IMG/VR virus record: IMGVR_UViG_3300015050_001142
Span: 1-64,000 of that record
Length of the DNA stretch: 64,000 nt
Strand: one strand, 5' to 3'
Source: a virus
Positions within the stretch are counted from its first letter, which is position 1. Each line of letters starts with the position of its first letter. Below the pieces are notes generated by a model. That model did not search any database. It was not told the origin of the DNA and was given only the letters and a program-made list of their open reading frames with translations. This document shows positions 5,334 to 38,313 of this stretch, in pieces. The translations under genes and the position numbers were made by a program.

Positions 5334-5490
5334 ACCAATACTTAACGTTGCCAGCAACCCTAAAATCGCTTAAATTTGGAACTGGCAGATGTTTTTCCCT
5401 GCTTATTAAGTATTCCCTCTCAATCGTTTTTCTCCCTCTGAGGTTATGGGATAGATCTCCAATTGTCATGAAGACATATGATGATCAGTG

Positions 5491-5562
5491 TGATGAGACT
5501 GGGGATCGAACCCAGGACATACGCATTTGAAGTACGTTATTCTACCTCTGAATTATCTCATC
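5491..5562 (-). tRNA. tRNA with UCA anticodon (opal suppressor type)
   Basis: Full cloverleaf: GATGAGA/TCTCATC acceptor, ATTC-AGAGGTA-GAAT D arm, ACGTA-CTTCAAA-TGCGT anticodon arm, 5 nt variable loop, CTGGG-TTCGATC-CCCAG T arm, discriminator A, no encoded CCA. Confidence 0.9.
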
Positions 5563-9607: not shown

Positions 9608-10048
9608 TTACTTGAATTTTGATTCATCGATGTCAAGCTTCTTTCTACATTCTGGGCCAATACCGATAGTTAATGATAGAGCCTCAGTCAAGGATCTACC
9701 ACAATGACCGCATGTATCACTACGTAGGATCTCGATATAATCTGGTACTGCTTGCTTTTGGATTTTATCCCACATCCATCCGAATACTCTCATTGGATTA
9801 CCAAGTACCACTTCATTAGGTACATCAATACCCGATGAGAAATTACCTTCTGGGTTATTACCAGTGTAGATACTACCTAAGAAAGTTTTCTTTAAATTAT
9901 GGTGTGTAACAAACCAGGTATTATCAGAATCTTTCTTTGCTTTGATAAGATATGTAAATTGATTACCAGTTAATGTATTGTGGAATGTAACCATCGCTCT
10001 TCCAGCAAGCATATAATCCTTGGCATACTTCTGGTCTAATGCTTTCAT
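9608..10048 (-). CDS. DUF6011-like Zn-binding protein
   Basis: C-terminal CGHCGRSLT...SLTIGIGPECRKK. Confidence 0.8.
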   Translation of the reverse strand: MKALDQKYAKDYMLAGRAMVTFHNTLTGNQFTYLIKAKKDSDNTWFVTHHNLKKTFLGSIYTGNNPEGNFSSGIDVPNEVVLGNPMRVFGWMWDKIQKQAVPDYIEILRSDTCGHCGRSLTEALSLTIGIGPECRKKLDIDESKFK

Positions 10049-10392: not shown

Positions 10393-10737
10393 AGAATTTC
10401 AGTTTAGGTGGTTTTAAAATAAAAAAAGTACCAGGCTTGAACTCACACCCAAGCACTGGTACATTACTATAGATTATCTCTGTGGTATTGAAACCACTTA
10501 ACCGGCCTTGAGATTGCAGGCTGTCTTTCGACTTTGCTCCAGATAACTATCACTGATTATTCTGGAAAGAGCAATATCATTCTTCGTGAATAATATATGT
10601 ATCTGCTCTTAGCTCCCGAAAGTATATCACTATACAATCGGGAATGGAAGGTCTGCCACTCAATCATTTTTCGGATAATGAATCTGACTAAGGATCTCGT
10701 CCATAGCCAGGAAGAACCCCATATGTCTTCTATTGCC

Positions 10738-11087
10738 AGTTACCTATGAACCTTGTCTCTGTTGCTAATGTAATGCATATCTTAGCTTCTCCAATTAATT
10801 CTCAATTGCATGGATAGTAAAACGTCAAGACACATCAAGACTTTAAATATTACAGTCAAGCAGTGATCAGTGTTACTAAAGAGATCGCTCCCGGAAAGAG
10901 ATTTCTCTCTAACCGGGATAGTTCAGCTTCGATCTGCCGAGGCAGTATATTCTAAGCGGAGAACTGTATGTTTAGTAAAGAGTGTGAGTAGCCTCTTACA
11001 AACTACAATACTTATCATCATTACACATTCCATGAATCACCTTTATACAGGAATTACATTCATAGCTCTCGACAAGAGATAGGTACT
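10738..11087 (-). ncRNA. candidate ~350 nt multibranch structured RNA
   Basis: Nested long-range pairings AGTACCTAT/ATAGGTAACT, CTTGTC/GACAAG, AATGTAAT/ATTACATT, TTACTAAA/TTTAGTAA; contains the repeated GNRA hairpin at 10889-10918. Confidence 0.6.
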
Positions 11088-11097
11088 GTTAAAAAAT

Positions 11098-11631
11098 TTA
11101 TGCTTCAGTGGTTGAAGCCGGCAATGAATTCAAATTACCAGTTGCCTGGTTGAGTTTCTTCTGCCACATGCTTTTCAGATCTTCTTTCTCGATGAATTGC
11201 TCGCCTTCTTTGATCAGTGCAGCCAATGCTTCGTGTGTTTCTTTCTGCAGGTTAATGCTAATACGCAGGTTAACATCGTGGTTCCAATCTTCGTAAGGAA
11301 ATCCTTCAATTGTAAAGATAGGTACACTCTTACCCTTCAATATAGGCAGACGGCTTACAGCTGCATCATAAGCTAATTTACGCTGGTATGCGCCGGCTTC
11401 CATGCAGATCAGATCTTCCAAAGGAATATTGATAGCATCCTTGTCTTTGATGTTAGCAAAACCATCACCATATTCACCATTGGTTTTCCACGGTGTTTCA
11501 GTGATTTTCTCAAGTGATGCTAATTGCTTTTTCAGGTCTTCTAATTGGGCCATAATACCATTACTGTTACCACTGCTTAAAATTTCTACTGCATCAGCAT
11601 TGCGCTGGAAATTGATCATTGTTGTTTTCAT
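11098..11631 (-). CDS. coiled-coil phage hypothetical protein directly upstream of the structured RNA
   Basis: PWKTNG...AYDAAV..L...F.IEG..YEDW..D..LRI pattern. Confidence 0.75.
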   Translation of the reverse strand: MKTTMINFQRNADAVEILSSGNSNGIMAQLEDLKKQLASLEKITETPWKTNGEYGDGFANIKDKDAINIPLEDLICMEAGAYQRKLAYDAAVSRLPILKGKSVPIFTIEGFPYEDWNHDVNLRISINLQKETHEALAALIKEGEQFIEKEDLKSMWQKKLNQATGNLNSLPASTTEA

Positions 11632-11652
11632 TTTGTTGATTGGTTTAAAAGT

Positions 11653-11949
11653 TTAATAAAGTTGAAAATGACATTGTTGATTGGTAATAAATTGATTACG
11701 TGGGAGAGACTTTTTAGCAATAATACAATTCCTAAGCCATAATTCTTGTTGTCTTGTTGCAGGACGTAATGGGCCAGCTAAATCAAATTTACCTTCTGCA
11801 AGATATAAACCTGAACTATCAAGACCAGTAGTTGGAAGTGTATAATTTCTTTTACCCTCTTGTCCTTTAAAACACCAGATAGTAAACAACCTCGGAGAAT
11901 GCTCGCACGTATAATACTTACCAATCTTAAGATCTTGTATTGTTAACAT
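11653..11949 (-). CDS. array protein 8 (C-terminus CHFQLY)
   Basis: DLKIGKYY, RPATRQQELWL, shared C-terminal motif. Confidence 0.75.
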   Translation of the reverse strand: MLTIQDLKIGKYYTCEHSPRLFTIWCFKGQEGKRNYTLPTTGLDSSGLYLAEGKFDLAGPLRPATRQQELWLRNCIIAKKSLPRNQFITNQQCHFQLY

Positions 11950-11951
11950 AA

Positions 11952-12257
11952 TTAGTAGATTGAGAAGTGAACATTACGCAAATCTGGTACATGCATTTCG
12001 ATCTTTACAGTACGTTCATGATTACGAATTGCTTTGAATAATTGAACCTGCTCTTTGTGGGTAGCCTTACGAAATTTATCATCTGCGAGATTTACACTAA
12101 ATTTTACCTGTAAATCTCCTAAAGCATCTAATGCATATGTGGCCCCTGAATCTACACTATTACCACGTTTATAAATAAAAATAATTGTTGCCGGTTTATT
12201 TCCAAAGATAAAATCAACAACATAATACTCATTCTCTTTGAGATCAGATATCTGCAT
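11952..12257 (-). CDS. array protein 7 (C-terminus VHFSIY; likely start MQISDLK)
   Basis: DLKENEYY, RKATHKEQ, shared C-terminal motif. Confidence 0.75.
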   Translation of the reverse strand: MQISDLKENEYYVVDFIFGNKPATIIFIYKRGNSVDSGATYALDALGDLQVKFSVNLADDKFRKATHKEQVQLFKAIRNHERTVKIEMHVPDLRNVHFSIY

Positions 12258-12258
12258 A

Positions 12259-12486
12259 TCAATAGATTTTAAAATGATGAGATTGTTTGAGTGGAATCCA
12301 TTGGCCGTTATCAAGGTAATCAAGAATTGAAATTACATTAAATCTACTGGAGCCACTTCTGGACCAGCTTACCATTGCAGTTAAAGTGTAAAGGTTTTCC
12401 CTAACATCAGTAATAATACCAAAATCTCCAACTCTTACACAATGCTTAATCTTCAATCCATTGATATTGTCTTTAGTATAGTGCAT
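12259..12486 (-). CDS. array protein 6 (C-terminus HHFKIY; likely start MHYTK)
   Basis: Shared C-terminal motif. Confidence 0.7.
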   Translation of the reverse strand: MHYTKDNINGLKIKHCVRVGDFGIITDVRENLYTLTAMVSWSRSGSSRFNVISILDYLDNGQWIPLKQSHHFKIY

Positions 12487-12808
12487 AGTGATTGGTTTTA
12501 GTATAATTAGAACACTTACCAATATCATCAGGATGAATATATTGTTGTGTTTTTTCACATGCAATGAAATGAACTCGTTCTGAAATTAGTGAATCAGTGA
12601 AAAAGTCTATTGAATTATTCTTTTCAGGGTCTAATGAGTTTTTTACTCCTTTATATTGGAACCAATTAGAAGTAGAACAAAGAAATGTAATCAGTTCGGG
12701 AGCAGCCGGTACTCTACCACTATGACGAAATACATATCTTGTACTGCCAGCTATAGCAGTATAGATCTCACCAGTTTTAAGATTTCGCCAATCTTTTTCT
12801 TGTAGCAT
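12473..12808 (-). CDS. array protein 5 (C-terminus NHYALY)
   Basis: NLKTGEIY, shared C-terminal motif. Confidence 0.75.
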   Translation of the reverse strand: MLQEKDWRNLKTGEIYTAIAGSTRYVFRHSGRVPAAPELITFLCSTSNWFQYKGVKNSLDPEKNNSIDFFTDSLISERVHFIACEKTQQYIHPDDIGKCSNYTKTNHYALY

Positions 12809-12810
12809 AG

Positions 12811-13167
12811 TTAATAAGTTGAGAAGTGATGAGATTGAGATACAGATATACTAGCAATTTCCTTCTCATTAAGTATCTTACCTTTTTCAACACATTTAAG
12901 CAATAAATTAATTTCGTATCGTGTTGCTTTACGATAATGAATAAAAGAAGAATTGCTATTTGTATTGAGATCAGAATAGACTCCAGGCGGATTGTAATCT
13001 TGTAATTTATCGTGAGTTATCCTAATATTCGCTACAGAATTCGTTCTATAAAGATCAGACCCTTTTAGAAATTGGAAAATATACTTTTCATTTGGCCAAT
13101 AAGTTCTATCAGCTATAACAGCATAAAACTCCCCAGGTTTAAGCTCTTCAAATTTGAGGTACTGCAT
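12811..13167 (-). CDS. array protein 4 (C-terminus HHFSTY)
   Basis: ELKPGEFY, RKATRYEINLLLKC, shared C-terminal motif. Confidence 0.75.
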   Translation of the reverse strand: MQYLKFEELKPGEFYAVIADRTYWPNEKYIFQFLKGSDLYRTNSVANIRITHDKLQDYNPPGVYSDLNTNSNSSFIHYRKATRYEINLLLKCVEKGKILNEKEIASISVSQSHHFSTY

Positions 13168-13169
13168 AG

Positions 13170-13832
13170 TTAATATAATTTAAAATGATGAATTGATTTA
13201 GAGGGTACCAACAGCTCGTGATATCTCCATATTCCAGGTGGATCGCATGAATAACCAGTTAAGAAATCAGCCCATCCTTCATGGTACATATGATTTGAAT
13301 CAGCACCTGGATTCTCAGCTCGATCAATGTAATGAATAACTCTGATTTGAGATTCAGCTTTTAAATGTATAGAAACACCAAATGGGCCTACAGGTATTTC
13401 AAACCAATCATCACTACATTCAATAAGAGTACCATCTTTTGGTGGACGAGAATCCTTATCATTCTTTCTCCATTTGTTCGGTGATATTATTGGAAGTCCA
13501 TATTGATCATACTGATCCCGATCATGCGGCATATACATTCCAGCTTCTTGTTGAGCGTTGAGAAGATCTTGAAGTTTCATTCGTGATTCAACTTCAGTTA
13601 ACCATTGACCATCCTGATATTGTTTTACTTGTTCACCAACACGAGATTGAGGAATACCTGATCGATCATAAATAAAATTTGCAGTTTGATCATGAATTTT
13701 TATAAACTCATTGATATCACCAGAACTAAAACATTCTTCAGGTGTTCTTGGGTACTCTCTACGCATTCTTTGAATAGCATTCATAAGAGGTCTTGCTTTC
13801 TCTTGAGCTATATCATAATGATTATTACCCAT
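13170..13832 (-). CDS. array protein 3 (C-terminus HHFKLY), with a terminase-like EYPRTPEE peptide
   Basis: 220 aa ORF; RREYPRTPEECF near the N-terminus. Confidence 0.75.
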   Translation of the reverse strand: MGNNHYDIAQEKARPLMNAIQRMRREYPRTPEECFSSGDINEFIKIHDQTANFIYDRSGIPQSRVGEQVKQYQDGQWLTEVESRMKLQDLLNAQQEAGMYMPHDRDQYDQYGLPIISPNKWRKNDKDSRPPKDGTLIECSDDWFEIPVGPFGVSIHLKAESQIRVIHYIDRAENPGADSNHMYHEGWADFLTGYSCDPPGIWRYHELLVPSKSIHHFKLY

Positions 13833-13834
13833 AA

Positions 13835-14077
13835 TTATGTGATTGAAAAGTGATGAGTTGAAGGTACCAGTTCATAGTTATCTGATGCAAACGTATAACC
13901 TTCACTTGATCTATCAGTATTTTTATGAGTTTTGAACTTTAAGTAGGTAAAGTTTTTACACCTTTCCCCTAAAGCTATAATAGTATCACTATCGCCCACT
14001 TTCATTGTACCTCTCTGCCCTTGTTGAAATCGTCTCACACGCATTCCAACCTTTGGTTCAATATTGTTTCTTAGCAT
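13835..14077 (-). CDS. array protein 2 (C-terminus HHFSIT)
   Basis: KOW/SH3-like KVGMRVR; shared C-terminal motif. Confidence 0.7.
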   Translation of the reverse strand: MLRNNIEPKVGMRVRRFQQGQRGTMKVGDSDTIIALGERCKNFTYLKFKTHKNTDRSSEGYTFASDNYELVPSTHHFSIT

Positions 14078-14080
14078 GGT

Positions 14081-14281
14081 TTAATAATTTAAAAAATGGT
14101 GAGTTGAATTAGGTAATCGCCAATGAGAATGATACCCGTAAATTACTCGGCCTTTAAACTTCTCCACCCATTGTGGCCAAGATAGTTTACCAGTTGCATT
14201 GCACCAATCACATTTCTCAGCCTTATGAAGCCAATGGTGCCCTCTTCCTTCGCACATTGTACAAATATACTTAGTACTCAT
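14081..14281 (-). CDS. array protein 1, DnaJ-type Zn finger (C-terminus HHFLNY)
   Basis: CTMCEGRG and CDWCNATG repeats. Confidence 0.7.
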   Translation of the reverse strand: MSTKYICTMCEGRGHHWLHKAEKCDWCNATGKLSWPQWVEKFKGRVIYGYHSHWRLPNSTHHFLNY

Positions 14282-14283
14282 GA

Positions 14284-14451
14284 TTAAGATGTTTTAGTAA
14301 ATCCAACAGCAATAAAAAATTGTATACAGATATAAGAACTTACTAAAGCACAACGATTCTCGAATCCAATATCTTTCCCATCTGCAATAAAGAGATAAAG
14401 GAGAATACACATTACTGTTGTAACAACATGCGTTATAATTTGTTTTTTCAT
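14284..14451 (-). CDS. 55 aa two-TM membrane protein (not in ORF track)
   Basis: Hand translation MKKQIITHVVTTVMCILLYLFIA...IQFFIAVGFTKTS*. Confidence 0.55.
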   Translation of the reverse strand: MKKQIITHVVTTVMCILLYLFIADGKDIGFENRCALVSSYICIQFFIAVGFTKTS

Positions 14452-14786
14452 AATTCTAATAATTTGGTTACAGTATCAAGTACCGGTAAAATGAGTTGAC
14501 CATCAGCTGGCCGTAATTGAATATACATTCCCCATTCAAATCCGGTGATACCTTGTGATTGAAGTTTTTGTACATCCTTATTACTCAGATCAACAAATGA
14601 ATTGAGTTCCATTCCAGGATATCGATCGCGTACATATTCTTGTAAGTATGCAAGTACCTTCTGCTGCATACCAGGCCCAGCCATATCAGCCATAGCCTGG
14701 TACACACCAAGAGGAATCTTATAGATATCATTGCGTGATTCTATTGTAAGATCATGAGAAGGATGAATGATTAATTCAGTTTTCAT
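14448..14786 (-). CDS. hypothetical protein
   Basis: ORF with ATGA overlaps at both ends. Confidence 0.65.
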   Translation of the reverse strand: MKTELIIHPSHDLTIESRNDIYKIPLGVYQAMADMAGPGMQQKVLAYLQEYVRDRYPGMELNSFVDLSNKDVQKLQSQGITGFEWGMYIQLRPADGQLILPVLDTVTKLLEL

Positions 14787-15319
14787 GGTAAGAGATAATC
14801 GGTTTTATCGTCTATATTGAAATCACCATTTACTAATACATTACAACAGATATTAGCGAGCTTTTCTTCAGTATTGAATCGATAAGGATGTCCATAAGAA
14901 CAATGTTCAAACTCATTTTCCATCCATTGCATAGATTTAAGAGAAAACCCCTTTAGATTATCACTATTTCCAAAACGCCGACAACTATCTGTAGAATCAA
15001 TGTCATTACCAAGTCTAATCTGAGACAGCATCATTAACCCTCTCTGACATACTTGACAATTCATTGATTTAAGCTGTTTGTTGAATACTCTTTGTAACTC
15101 TTTACTGGTACCTTCAACTCTTTGGAGATCCTCACTCCAGTATCCAGAATAATGTGCGAAAACTTGTTCTTTCAACACCATTTGTAATGCATCCCATGCA
15201 ATTTCTAATCGCTGAGATTGTGGATCAAGAGAATTGAAATGCTCATTACGCTCTTCAATTCCTTTAACTGTGTTTGGATACTTCGAGAGTACCGATTTGA
15301 ATGTTATGTTTGCTTTCAT
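14783..15319 (-). CDS. phage hypothetical protein
   Basis: QRLEIAWDAL...CQVCQRG...ICCNVLVNGDF. Confidence 0.7.
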   Translation of the reverse strand: MKANITFKSVLSKYPNTVKGIEERNEHFNSLDPQSQRLEIAWDALQMVLKEQVFAHYSGYWSEDLQRVEGTSKELQRVFNKQLKSMNCQVCQRGLMMLSQIRLGNDIDSTDSCRRFGNSDNLKGFSLKSMQWMENEFEHCSYGHPYRFNTEEKLANICCNVLVNGDFNIDDKTDYLLP

Positions 15320-30999: not shown

Positions 31000-33102
31000 A
31001 TGGCATTTCATAATTTAGTTAATACAAGATTATTCTCTGAAGCAGCAACAGATTGGAAATCTAATGGTGGAAGATATACGATGGCACCAAAAGGTTCTCG
31101 TGATTATTTTCAGTATTGGGAAGAACAGGAGAAGCGATGTAAGTTCGGATATAGTGTTGGTGATTTGTGGATACCCGGTCGGATGTATTTCTGGCTGAAT
31201 TTCTTTCCAATGTCAAGGGTACCAGATTCTGTATTGATGAAAGCACTTGATGAACGCAGAGATAAACGAGGTAAATTATCTGTAACTACTGCTGAGAAAA
31301 TAATATCATTTCCCGCATTCTGGGAAATCCACTATGAATGGTGGAGATTCAAACATATTTCCTGGTACGGCGGTGAATTCATGGGAATTAAATCAGATGG
31401 TGGTAAGCATCTTGGTTGTTTAAAAACCCGTGGTGCCGGTTTCTCTTATCTTGAAGCTTGTGATGGTGTATATAATTACAACTTCATTCCCGGTAGCAAA
31501 TCTTATTATTTTGCTGGCGCTGAACCATTCTTAGTTGGTGATGCGATTATGGATAAGGTACAAACAGCTCTTGACTGGATCAATGAATATTCTTCTTACT
31601 GGAAACAGAATAGGCAGAAGAAGTTCTCACTCATGCACCAGAAAGGTTCTTACATCGATGAATTCGGTGTTGAGCGCGGGAAAATGCCTGAGATCATTGC
31701 ACAGATCGTTGATAAACCTTCAAAGACTCGTGGTAAGCGTGGAAGAAAAGCTTCATTTGAAGAAGCAGGCTCATTTCCTAATCTGGAAGCAGCTCTTGAA
31801 GTATCGATGGGTTCTATGCGTGAAGGTTCTGTATATGTGGGCCAGATCTCAGTATTCGGTACCGGTGGTGAAGTTGGACCAGGTATTCAAGGTTTGGAGA
31901 ATATCTTTAATTCGCCTGAATCCTGGGATATGCTTGCGTTTCCTAATATTTGGGATGAAGGTATGTACGGAACTCAATGTGGATACTTTGTACCATGTTG
32001 GAGAGCTAACTCCTGGTTCATGGATGAAGATGGTAATGTTGATATGGAATCAGCTATTGCTGCAGATGATCGGGAACGGGAGAAAAAGAAAAAATCTGGC
32101 CGGCCGAAGGATTTGGATAGAAGAAAGGCTGAGTACCCACGAACTCCGGCCGAAGCACTGCAGCGTATTAGTGATAATGGATTCAATATCGCGGAGATTG
32201 ACGCACAGATATCCCGGATATTAACCAATAAATCTATCCAGGCTATGATCCGCCACGGTAAGTTGATTACCTCAACAACTGGTACTGGCGGAATTGACTT
32301 TGTACCGCAATCAAAAGCTGTAGCTAAACCTATTGAAGACTTCCCACATAAGAAAGGTGATGATTTAACTGGCTGTTTCTCTATTATTGAACGACCATTT
32401 ACTGATCAGAATGGATTGGTACCCAAAGGAATGTATGTGATCAGCGTGGATAGTTATTCAAAAGAAGAATCCGAGGATGTAACATCGCTGTTCTCATTTA
32501 AAGTGTGGAAACAGGAGAATACTATTGATCCGGCATATGCTGGATTACCGGTAGCCTGGTACGCGGGCCGACCAAAACGATTAGATGATAACCATGACAT
32601 ATTATTCAATGCATCTCAATACTTTAACGCTGATATACAAGGTGAAATAGCCGGCGGTGGCCAGATGATCGTCAATTATGCCCGTACCCATAAACTCATG
32701 CACCGGTTAAAGCATGAGCCGGATATGATTCACAATAAAGAATTGGCAAGTAAATCTGCAGGTAATTCTTATTTGATGAATATGTCAACTGAGCGTAAGG
32801 AAGTAGGACTTACCTATCTGGAAGATTGGCATGTACAGCCACGCGGATTAGACGACAAGGGTAATAAGGTACTGAATGTTCATAGGATCTATGATATTGC
32901 CTGGTTGAGAGAAATGAAGAAACATCACTCAAAATTAAACTGCGATCGTATCTCTGATGCGATTATTGCTATGTACGAATTAAAGGAAAGAATGGCTATT
33001 CTGGTACAGGCCAGAGCTGAAACCAGAGGCTTTTACTCAAATAAACGGGTATTATATGGTGGATCAGCTATGAATACTGGTGGCCGTACTACCGCATATT
33101 AA
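31000..33102 (+). CDS. terL: terminase large subunit
   Basis: LKTRGAGFSY Walker A-like motif, FEEAGSF Walker B, FGTGG, nuclease-domain ISVDSY and DRISD; crAss-type. Confidence 0.92.
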   Translation: MAFHNLVNTRLFSEAATDWKSNGGRYTMAPKGSRDYFQYWEEQEKRCKFGYSVGDLWIPGRMYFWLNFFPMSRVPDSVLMKALDERRDKRGKLSVTTAEKIISFPAFWEIHYEWWRFKHISWYGGEFMGIKSDGGKHLGCLKTRGAGFSYLEACDGVYNYNFIPGSKSYYFAGAEPFLVGDAIMDKVQTALDWINEYSSYWKQNRQKKFSLMHQKGSYIDEFGVERGKMPEIIAQIVDKPSKTRGKRGRKASFEEAGSFPNLEAALEVSMGSMREGSVYVGQISVFGTGGEVGPGIQGLENIFNSPESWDMLAFPNIWDEGMYGTQCGYFVPCWRANSWFMDEDGNVDMESAIAADDREREKKKKSGRPKDLDRRKAEYPRTPAEALQRISDNGFNIAEIDAQISRILTNKSIQAMIRHGKLITSTTGTGGIDFVPQSKAVAKPIEDFPHKKGDDLTGCFSIIERPFTDQNGLVPKGMYVISVDSYSKEESEDVTSLFSFKVWKQENTIDPAYAGLPVAWYAGRPKRLDDNHDILFNASQYFNADIQGEIAGGGQMIVNYARTHKLMHRLKHEPDMIHNKELASKSAGNSYLMNMSTERKEVGLTYLEDWHVQPRGLDDKGNKVLNVHRIYDIAWLREMKKHHSKLNCDRISDAIIAMYELKERMAILVQARAETRGFYSNKRVLYGGSAMNTGGRTTAY

Positions 33103-36783: not shown

Positions 36784-38313
36784 ATGTCAAGTAACACTTT
36801 AGTTCCCCAGATGAAGTTCCAGGTACAGGAACAGATATTTGATGCTAAGAGTATGTTGGATGAAACCAACTTTTACCATCAGCGTCAAGGTATGCCGTCC
36901 GAGCTTACCAAAAAGTTAACCTATATCCTCGGATCTCAGAAACGTAACTATCCATTGTCACTTATGACTCTTGGTGCAGGTGGTTTCAACACTGATAACA
37001 AAGGTGGTGGATCAGCTATCGAGATCGATGATGTACAGTACACTTATCCGGTAATGACCCGCACCAACAAAGCATCAGTTATTTACTCAACAGAGTATGT
37101 AACCGGTGATAAGCCTGGTATTGGCCACGGTAAGTTCTACGCAACATTTACTGATAACTGGATCAAACGTTTCTATGTTCTCCAATCTACAGGTGGTACC
37201 CAAGCTTACGTACATAGCGATGGTGAACCGGTAGCAGGTGGTTACAGATATGAACTCCAGTTAGATCCGGCCGGCCCGACAGATTTCTGTCCTTTGGCAC
37301 AGCTTGATCCCGGTACTCGTTGGGTTGAATTACATACAGCAGTAGCAGAATCTGAATCCCGTTCAACTGAGAGCAAAATGGTTATGCCAGGTTTGTTCAA
37401 GAATCAGATGGGTTTCATGAGAGCTGGTATGAGCTGGGCAGGTAATTCAGCAAATAAAATGATGAGGATCACAGTTAAAACCGATAAAGGTGAGACTGAT
37501 ATGTGGATGGATTACTACATGTGGCAGATGGAAGAGCGTTGGGCTGAAGAGTGTGAGCACATGTATTGGTACAGCCGTTATAACAGACTCGTTGATGGTT
37601 CTATTCCATTGAAAGATATGTTCACCGGTAAAGTAATTCCGCGTGGTTCCGGTGTATTTGAACAGATCACAAACAAATCAACCTATGCCCGCCTTACTTT
37701 GAATGCTTTGACAAATAAAGTAGGTGATGCATTGTTTGGTCAGACTGATACTGGTGGAATGACTATTACCCTTATGACCGGTACTGGTGGTATGAGAGAG
37801 TTTGATCGTGCTTGTCGTGAGGCAGGTATTGCTAAACTTGGACCATTCGGTGCAGGTGATATCGCCAGCAAATTTGTATCTGGTACAGGATATAACTTGG
37901 CTTTGGGTGGATACTTTGATACTTTCTATCATATTGATGGATATACAATTAAAGTAAAACATAACCCGGTATTCGATACAGGTCGTGTTGCGCTGGCTTC
38001 TCCATTACACCCTGAAAGTGGTTTACCACTGGAATCTTACAGGATGTGTTTCCTTGATGATAGCGATGTTGATGGATCACCAAATATCCGTCACGTAGCA
38101 CAGAAAGGCCGTTCATTCCTGGATGGTGTTGTAAAAGGTTTAACTCCAATGCCACGTTCATTACAAATCTTGATCGGTTCTACCGGTGGTGCAGCTTCTA
38201 AAGATTTGGCAACTGTGCAGGATAAGAGTGAATACACAAGGTTTAAATCTGCAGGTATTCAGATCATGCGCGCTAACCGCTGCTTTGATCTCCAGTGTAT
38301 CGCAGGTCAATAA
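36784..38313 (+). CDS. major capsid protein
   Basis: 509 aa; GSGVFEQI, LMTGTGGMREF, GYTIKVKHNPVFD, HPESGLPLESYRM, as in crAss-like MCPs. Confidence 0.9.
   Translation: MSSNTLVPQMKFQVQEQIFDAKSMLDETNFYHQRQGMPSELTKKLTYILGSQKRNYPLSLMTLGAGGFNTDNKGGGSAIEIDDVQYTYPVMTRTNKASVIYSTEYVTGDKPGIGHGKFYATFTDNWIKRFYVLQSTGGTQAYVHSDGEPVAGGYRYELQLDPAGPTDFCPLAQLDPGTRWVELHTAVAESESRSTESKMVMPGLFKNQMGFMRAGMSWAGNSANKMMRITVKTDKGETDMWMDYYMWQMEERWAEECEHMYWYSRYNRLVDGSIPLKDMFTGKVIPRGSGVFEQITNKSTYARLTLNALTNKVGDALFGQTDTGGMTITLMTGTGGMREFDRACREAGIAKLGPFGAGDIASKFVSGTGYNLALGGYFDTFYHIDGYTIKVKHNPVFDTGRVALASPLHPESGLPLESYRMCFLDDSDVDGSPNIRHVAQKGRSFLDGVVKGLTPMPRSLQILIGSTGGAASKDLATVQDKSEYTRFKSAGIQIMRANRCFDLQCIAGQ

Follow-up and report, generated by a model that had tools for sequence, protein, structure and literature searches.

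In the window analysed here, the first 64 kb of the 95,585-bp IMG/VR virus record IMGVR_UViG_3300015050_001142, which CheckV rates complete, we found that eight consecutive, gapless open reading frames (ORFs) tiling positions 11653-14281 of the minus strand end in one short peptide, H[FY]xx[YT], always in the same register to the stop codon. We read this shared tail as a portable C-terminal tag for docking or degradation that a common partner would recognise, and put the probability of this reading at about one half. The ORFs were re-read, and all eight agree, as do their C-termini, with those listed in a preliminary description of this DNA; the flanking genes, ending in ..GFTKTS and ..ASTTEA, are untagged, as had also been said there.

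The motif H[FY]xx[YT]-stop closes 8 of the 540 stop-to-stop frames of at least 40 aa in the window, and these are exactly the eight genes of the run, called g1 to g8 in order of transcription. Among the 112 called genes of the whole record it is found in the same eight, all consecutive. Given the composition of the proteome, the chance of the motif is 1.8e-4 per gene, corresponding to 0.02 genes expected and a probability of ∼5e-19 for eight or more. When the eight tails are anchored at the C-terminus, the pair identity is 1.00 at position -5 (His), 0.75 at positions -4 (Phe/Tyr) and -1 (Tyr/Thr) and 0.36 at position -6, and stays at background (0.04-0.14) from position -9 upstream; the top pair identity reached in 2000 random sets of eight genes is 0.54. 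A fuller description of the tail reads: an optional [LVI]-Pro, 2-5 residues, then [STQ]-x-H-H-F-x-(hydrophobic)-Y-COOH. The tagged genes and the gene that follows them are:

14081-14281, minus strand: g1, 66 aa, with two CxxCxGxG motifs; tail ..RLPNSTHHFLNY-stop (..STHHFLNY), TAA.
13835-14077, minus strand: g2, 80 aa, no family; tail ..ELVPSTHHFSIT-stop (..STHHFSIT), the sole tail with a terminal Thr.
13170-13832, minus strand: g3, 220 aa; tail ..LLVPSKSIHHFKLY-stop (..SIHHFKLY).
12811-13167, minus strand: g4, 118 aa, of the faint paralogue group, with LKxGxxY near the N-terminus and an RKAT helix; tail ..SVSQSHHFSTY-stop.
12473-12808, minus strand: g5, 111 aa, of the paralogue group; the weakest tail, ..YTKTNHYALY-stop.
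12259-12486, minus strand: g6, 75 aa when counted from ATG 12486, the favoured start; tail ..WIPLKQSHHFKIY-stop (..QSHHFKIY), the sole TGA stop.
11952-12257, minus strand: g7, 101 aa, of the paralogue group (RKAT); tail ..HVPDLRNVHFSIY-stop (..NVHFSIY).
11653-11949, minus strand: g8, 98 aa, of the paralogue group (RPAT); tail ..FITNQQCHFQLY-stop (..QCHFQLY), with the next start 21 nt downstream.
11098-11631, minus strand: g9, 177 aa, untagged and without family; the last gene of the transcription unit of the tagged run, marking the boundary of the run and considered as a candidate reader of the tag.

The tail is conserved as a peptide. The preliminary description had pointed to synonymous codon variation within the motif and to the shifted next start at 12486, and both are as stated there. 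The invariant His(-5) is encoded four times by CAT and four times by CAC, though CAC makes up only 23% of the His codons genome-wide. The comparison of synonymous variation that had been named as a check gives, over the last 12 codons, 60 of 109 same-amino-acid gene pairs sharing a codon, against 57.6 expected from codon usage. The tail shows no nucleotide conservation beyond what the peptide demands, and the identity of the junction sequences falls mainly on the first two bases of the H, F and Y codons. We also built a position weight matrix on the 39-nt junction and scanned both strands of the 95.6-kb genome with it. The eight sites score 24-38 bits and the rest of the genome at most 13.7 bits, with no further copy of the junction in another frame, on the opposite strand or in non-coding DNA. 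RNAalifold gives no common RNA structure at the junctions, and they contain no recurrent TAnnTTTG element of the Bacteroidota type. The tail keeps its register to its own stop even where the next start is displaced: the next ATG (12486) lies inside the tail of g5 in another frame, and that after g8 is 21 nt off.

An outside homologue of one of the tagged proteins extends this picture. An exhaustive HMMER search of 1.84 billion representatives with g3 recovered one relative outside the phage, P0002 (130 aa, 49% identity, E 8e-29); only one Logan contig, 4,817 bp long, encodes it. P0002 covers residues 86-220 of g3, a domain, and leaves the N-terminal 85 aa outside the match. Its C-terminus, ..IPNIIALHPFKYY / ..WRYFIPNIIALHPFKYY, keeps Pro, H(-6), F(-4), K(-3) and Y(-1) of the g3 tail (..WRYHELLVPSKSIHHFKLY) in register with the stop. 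Since these key residues are kept in register at 49% identity, the tail predates this phage. With synonymous sites randomised, no extra copy in the genome, no conserved RNA fold, the own-stop register of g5 and g8 and the key residues of P0002 retained, the tests support selection on the peptide itself rather than on a site in the DNA or RNA, and the tail is under purifying selection at the protein level.

The bodies that carry the tail have little in common. No match above threshold was found for any of the eight proteins in Pfam, PHROGs or NCBIfam. The closest approach is that of g1, which matches DnaJ_CXXCXGXG of Pfam below the cut-off (E 0.0038) and the DnaJ and anti-TRAP zinc-finger regions of NCBIfam at E 0.001-0.04. 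None of the three collections supports the earlier assignment of g2 as KOW-like. Four genes had been described as apparent paralogues, and g4, g5, g7 and g8 do have in common LKxGxxY and an R[KP]AT followed by a helix, but their paralogy is only faint (within-set BLASTP E 0.006-0.25); they are probably old paralogues, to judge from these motifs. The within-set BLASTP matches mostly cover the tails. When the family of g3 and P0002 was compared with the paralogue family by hhalign, the alignment was limited to the last 12 residues, and the two bodies have no detectable similarity. Because the profile comparison aligns only these residues, bodies of three or more kinds carry the tail: a DnaJ-type zinc finger, the g3/P0002 domain and the LKxGxxY/RxAT group. 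To these come g2 and g6, both without a family and without a match to the other tagged proteins outside the tail. A profile search of the PDB with the alignment of the paralogues (A2) returned nothing, and the ESM Atlas returned no named relatives, the only leads lying below 0.9.

Structures were predicted for g4 and for the g3 domain. AlphaFold2 (AF2), run on the paralogue alignment, gives g4 a body of four strands and two helices, after which the tail (residues 109-118) runs as coil with a predicted local distance difference test score (pLDDT) of 32. The model is of low confidence as a whole (mean pLDDT 53), and agrees weakly with a free tail. The AF2 model of the g3 domain has a pLDDT of 39.5 and is unusable.

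The tagged run lies in a hypervariable part of an uncultivated, distant crAss-like phage. The record has PHROG family matches for the large terminase (TerL), the portal and the major head protein; the phage is placed here because the named relatives of its TerL are crAss-like phages (of Bacteroides, Flavobacterium and Azobacteroides), at ∼30% identity. Its host is probably a member of the Bacteroidota. The run is held by a minus-strand block of small genes at ∼1-20 kb, oriented away from the structural genes, which are on the plus strand and begin near 23 kb; the replication genes (a family A DNA polymerase, helicases and a DnaB-like protein) lie at 75-95 kb of the record. The tagged genes are ∼22 kb from the major capsid gene (36784-38313), on the opposite strand and outside the structural module.

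Searches for other carriers of the tail recovered only the phage itself and P0002. A word-based search of 5.8 billion proteins with g3 and the alignments A2 and A3 found only the phage's own proteins and P0002, and scans of IMG/VR, JGI metagenomes and GTDB genomes with g3, P0002 and A3 found no relatives. Neither did an IMG/VR scan with the 146-aa protein encoded at 9608-10048. No related tagged cluster was found in IMG/VR, the JGI metagenomes or the GTDB genomes. At the DNA level, the pattern HHFxxY-TAA-NN-ATG gave 66 single matches in IMG/VR, 64 of them out of frame and the remaining two intergenic, and a two-tail pattern based on gene spacing gave 20 matches, none of which ends a real ORF; the matches of both scans are taken as chance. 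Among deposited phages, blastn found nothing that matches positions 11000-15000.

The closest TerL relatives in IMG/VR reach 53-61% identity over the best aligned segment. We took the five longest records of these TerL relatives whole and searched them for the tail pattern. The gene order around the block is kept in two of the five, G003 (24-39 kb) and G004 (1-15 kb), and their syntenic blocks contain no homologues of the eight genes and no shared tail of any kind. Because these syntenic phages are without both, we take the tagged run to be a lineage-specific insert in a hypervariable accessory region. The record with the best synteny to the left arm, G003 (loci L099-L101), has a G+C content of 48.8%, against 37.2% here, a large shift for syntenic phages.

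Several further observations concern single members of the run and its surroundings. For g6 the start codon is not certain, with ATG 12486 as the favoured choice and ATG 12528 or TTG 12456 as possible alternatives. Read-through of its TGA stop would append five residues after the tag; the other seven tagged genes stop at TAA. ARAGORN reports a 73-nt tRNA at window positions 5490-5562 (minus strand) with the anticodon TCA, reading UGA, which it labels tRNA-SeC. Directly after g9, at the end of the operon, 705 nt (window 10393-11097) are without a credible ORF, although the block around them is densely coding; this stretch may hold a structured RNA.

The N-terminal extension of g3, which has no counterpart in P0002, holds the sequence EYPRTPEE, and the TerL of this phage has EYPRTPAE. 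Residues 20-43 of g3 (window 13728-13766) and residues 372-395 of TerL (32113-32184) are identical at 10 of 24 positions (E 0.002, for a single comparison). Outside the window, a perfect HHFSNY-stop occurs at genome position 86428 on the plus strand, at the end of a 23-codon open frame. Since this frame is antisense inside the DnaB-like helicase gene, we took it as a chance occurrence; the rough expectation for a strict HHFxxY-stop in six frames is only ∼0.01.

A 12-nt exact direct repeat, reading ACCAATCAACAA on the minus strand, is found at window positions 11633-11644 and 11674-11685, 41 nt apart. The two copies bracket the DNA coding for the g8 tail and its stop, one of them encoding T-N-Q-Q before C-H-F-Q-L-Y and the other lying directly 5' of the g9 ATG. 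A rough estimate of the chance of such a repeat at such a place is ∼0.01. The repeat may be a microhomology footprint of the grafting or duplication of the tail.

The fixed register of the tail to the stop suggests that a single partner would recognise the tail together with the free C-terminal carboxylate. On this reading the run would have grown by tandem duplication of gene-plus-junction units in the hypervariable accessory block, the tail being retained while the bodies diverged or were replaced. Our leading guess is that the reader would be a host AAA+ protease or its adaptor, and the tail a common degron limiting the lifetime of a set of phage proteins. The tail resembles Sul20 and LarA, two degrons of the protease Lon, in its shortness, its probable flexibility, its content of aromatic residues and His and its terminal position. 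It could about as well serve for docking on some other hub of the host or the phage. The preliminary description saw in the eight proteins interchangeable effectors sent to one receptor, which they may be.

A number of points weigh against the tail being a tag of this kind. It is known from one phage record and one homologue, and in that homologue His(-5), invariant in the cluster, is replaced by Pro. The bodies might be paralogues diverged past recognition and the tail a structural remnant. The resemblance to Lon degrons is loose, with Tyr and not His as the terminal residue. No protease, PDZ protein, clamp or adaptor was recognised among the 48 of ∼112 proteins scanned with Pfam, PHROGs or both. 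All eight tails have A as the third base of codon -3, whatever the amino acid (P 0.0013 uncorrected, ∼0.016 corrected for 12 columns), and the junctions in the run are of the form TAA-NN-ATG, whereas coupled genes elsewhere in the genome overlap by ATGA; these two features are small signs of a further constraint on the mRNA.

Among 20 neighbouring or nearby proteins, Pfam and PHROGs recognise no peptidase, and the scan of replication genes brought up no recognisable clamp gene.

The tail could instead be the conserved remnant of one old tandem family, with a role within or between the copies, as a last strand, in self-association or in metal binding by the His-His pair, and not as an address. 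The genes do form a tandem array with a common style of TAA-NN-ATG junction, and g4, g5, g7 and g8 resemble faint paralogues. Several of the bodies also start with a similar motif of a beta-hairpin-like kind (LKxGxxY, KVGxxV, KDGTLIE). A direct-repeat finder detects the junctions as repeats of 20-39 nt with 67-85% identity, as it would because a conserved peptide with a stop and a start yields such repeats; where the next gene is a paralogue, the repeats extend into its 5' end, which agrees with the tandem duplication of units and is what a family grown by such duplication predicts. However, profile comparison finds nothing common past the tail, and the proteins differ in length, from 66 to 220 aa, and in features, as between the zinc finger and the g3/P0002 domain. 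The spacing from the Pro linker to HHF varies by 2-5 residues, which is more typical of a linker than of a packed strand, and the low-confidence model of g4 shows the tail as an appendage without structure. We consider a descent of all eight from one family, with the tail as its remnant, unlikely.

A role in translation is a good deal less probable. Under this explanation termination and re-initiation along the run would be tuned either by the last six residues, as a nascent peptide in the exit tunnel of the terminating ribosome, or by their codons, as part of the initiation region of the next gene. Bacteroidota make little use of Shine-Dalgarno pairing. The exact register of the motif to the stop codon fits such a role, as does the invariant A in codon -3. 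In six of the eight tagged genes the stop is followed by an ATG within 1-3 nt, an arrangement specific to the run when compared with the ATGA overlaps elsewhere in the genome. However, the motif is kept in g8 with the next start 21 nt away and in g5 with the next start inside the tail, and the junction upstream of g1 is also TAA-NN-ATG, with no motif before it. Other tightly coupled genes are without the motif, synonymous sites in the tail are otherwise free, and the junctions have no conserved RNA structure.

A more specific form of coupling, which we hold to be a shade more doubtful again, would place the action of the peptide inside the ribosome: an HHFxxY ending would slow release or recycling at the stop, and the same ribosome would then restart at the ATG 1-3 nt downstream, with the coupling of the eight genes encoded in the peptide. 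This fits because the stop register is exact, TAA-NN-ATG is specific to the run and the third base of codon -3 is invariant. Least probable of all is a DNA or RNA element at the junctions with the peptide as its by-product, be it a promoter, a site of RNA processing or one of cassette recombination as in the T4 PeSL repeats or integron attC. The dispersed 20-39 nt direct repeats and the 12-nt repeat around the g8 tail DNA, a conceivable footprint of microhomology grafting, could speak for such an element. It is at odds with an identity that falls mainly on the first two bases of the H, F and Y codons and with synonymous sites at codon-usage expectation, with eight in-frame sites and no other on either strand of the genome, with junctions lacking a recurrent TAnnTTTG and a conserved fold, and with P0002, which keeps the peptide positions at 49% protein identity.

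To our knowledge, most small early and accessory genes of crAss-like phages are without known function or relatives, and the shared tag provides a handle on eight such genes at once. If one partner reads the tag, eight proteins would converge on one host or phage machine, and if that partner is a protease, the tag would be a transferable degron for Bacteroidota genetics.

A motif of the HHFxxY type on eight tandem, relative-less genes of a crAss-like phage is undescribed in the literature searched, which held nothing relevant on shared C-terminal tails in crAss-like or other phages. Shared C-terminal recognition peptides as such are known, among them degrons, clamp-binding tails and the tails of single-stranded DNA-binding protein (SSB). 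We know of no described degron of the form H-H-F-x-hydrophobic-Y, and of no description of eight phage proteins sharing one degron.

In capsid and cargo targeting, diverse proteins are addressed to one HK97-fold shell or scaffold, by C-terminal cargo-loading peptides in encapsulins and by an N-terminal capsid-targeting sequence in T4. The tail found here is unlike loading peptides of the GSL type, and its carriers lie among small genes of no known family.

Docking tails are also shared by replication and transcription proteins. Tails that bind the gp45 clamp are found on gp43, gp33 and gp55 of T4, the bacterial beta-clamp is bound through QL[SD]LF, and SSB and T7 gp2.5 have acidic tails with a terminal aromatic residue. 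In these systems too the same short C-terminal peptide is present on several unrelated proteins and plugs into one pocket of a hub, often via a terminal aromatic. The tails described here fit neither QL[SD]LF, nor the PIP box, nor the acidic tails, and their carriers are small relative-less proteins of an accessory block, not replication or transcription factors; the proteins scanned include no recognised clamp or SSB gene product. We rejected a sliding-clamp motif (QL[SD]LF) or PIP box (Qxx[LIM]xx[FY][FY]) for these tails: Gln is present at position -8 in g4, g6 and g8 (in g8 also at -7), but Ser, His or Cys stands where Leu, Ile or Met is required.

Degradation by host proteases is familiar among phage regulators, with lambda N, O and CII degraded by Lon, ClpXP or FtsH. 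An ssrA-like ClpX degron (..LAA-COOH) was rejected, as no tail ends in AA and only g5 has Y-A-L, which is then followed by Tyr.

Small proteins with an FxSxx-COOH ending have a conserved C-terminal peptide, and a zincin-like metallopeptidase encoded next to them processes it (Haft and Basu 2011, in the summary by Kaur et al. 2020, PMC7159879). They resemble the tagged proteins in being small and rapidly diverging, with the C-terminal peptide as the conserved part. We rejected a processing system of this kind: the motif differs, neither metallopeptidase nor vWA-MoxR genes were found in the neighbourhood scanned, and here the peptide is carried by a tandem run of eight genes of a phage.

The Lon degrons offer the nearest parallel for a protease as the reader. 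Sul20, from the C-terminus of E. coli SulA (..KIHSNLYH), is a random coil whose last two residues, Y19 and H20, make critical contacts with the Lon N-domain (PMC8087443). In LarA of Caulobacter, the last five residues form a transferable Lon degron with a terminal His (PMC10665427). The last six positions of the tail found here hold H, H, F, a hydrophobic residue and Y, with a terminal Tyr or Thr and not His, and the likeness is one of composition only. Like Sul20 and LarA, the tails are short, terminal and made of aromatic or hydrophobic residues and His, with a flexibility that is only probable here. In the Lon systems one reader handles unrelated bodies through a peptide read at the extreme C-terminus, which is the arrangement that we propose for the eight tagged proteins.

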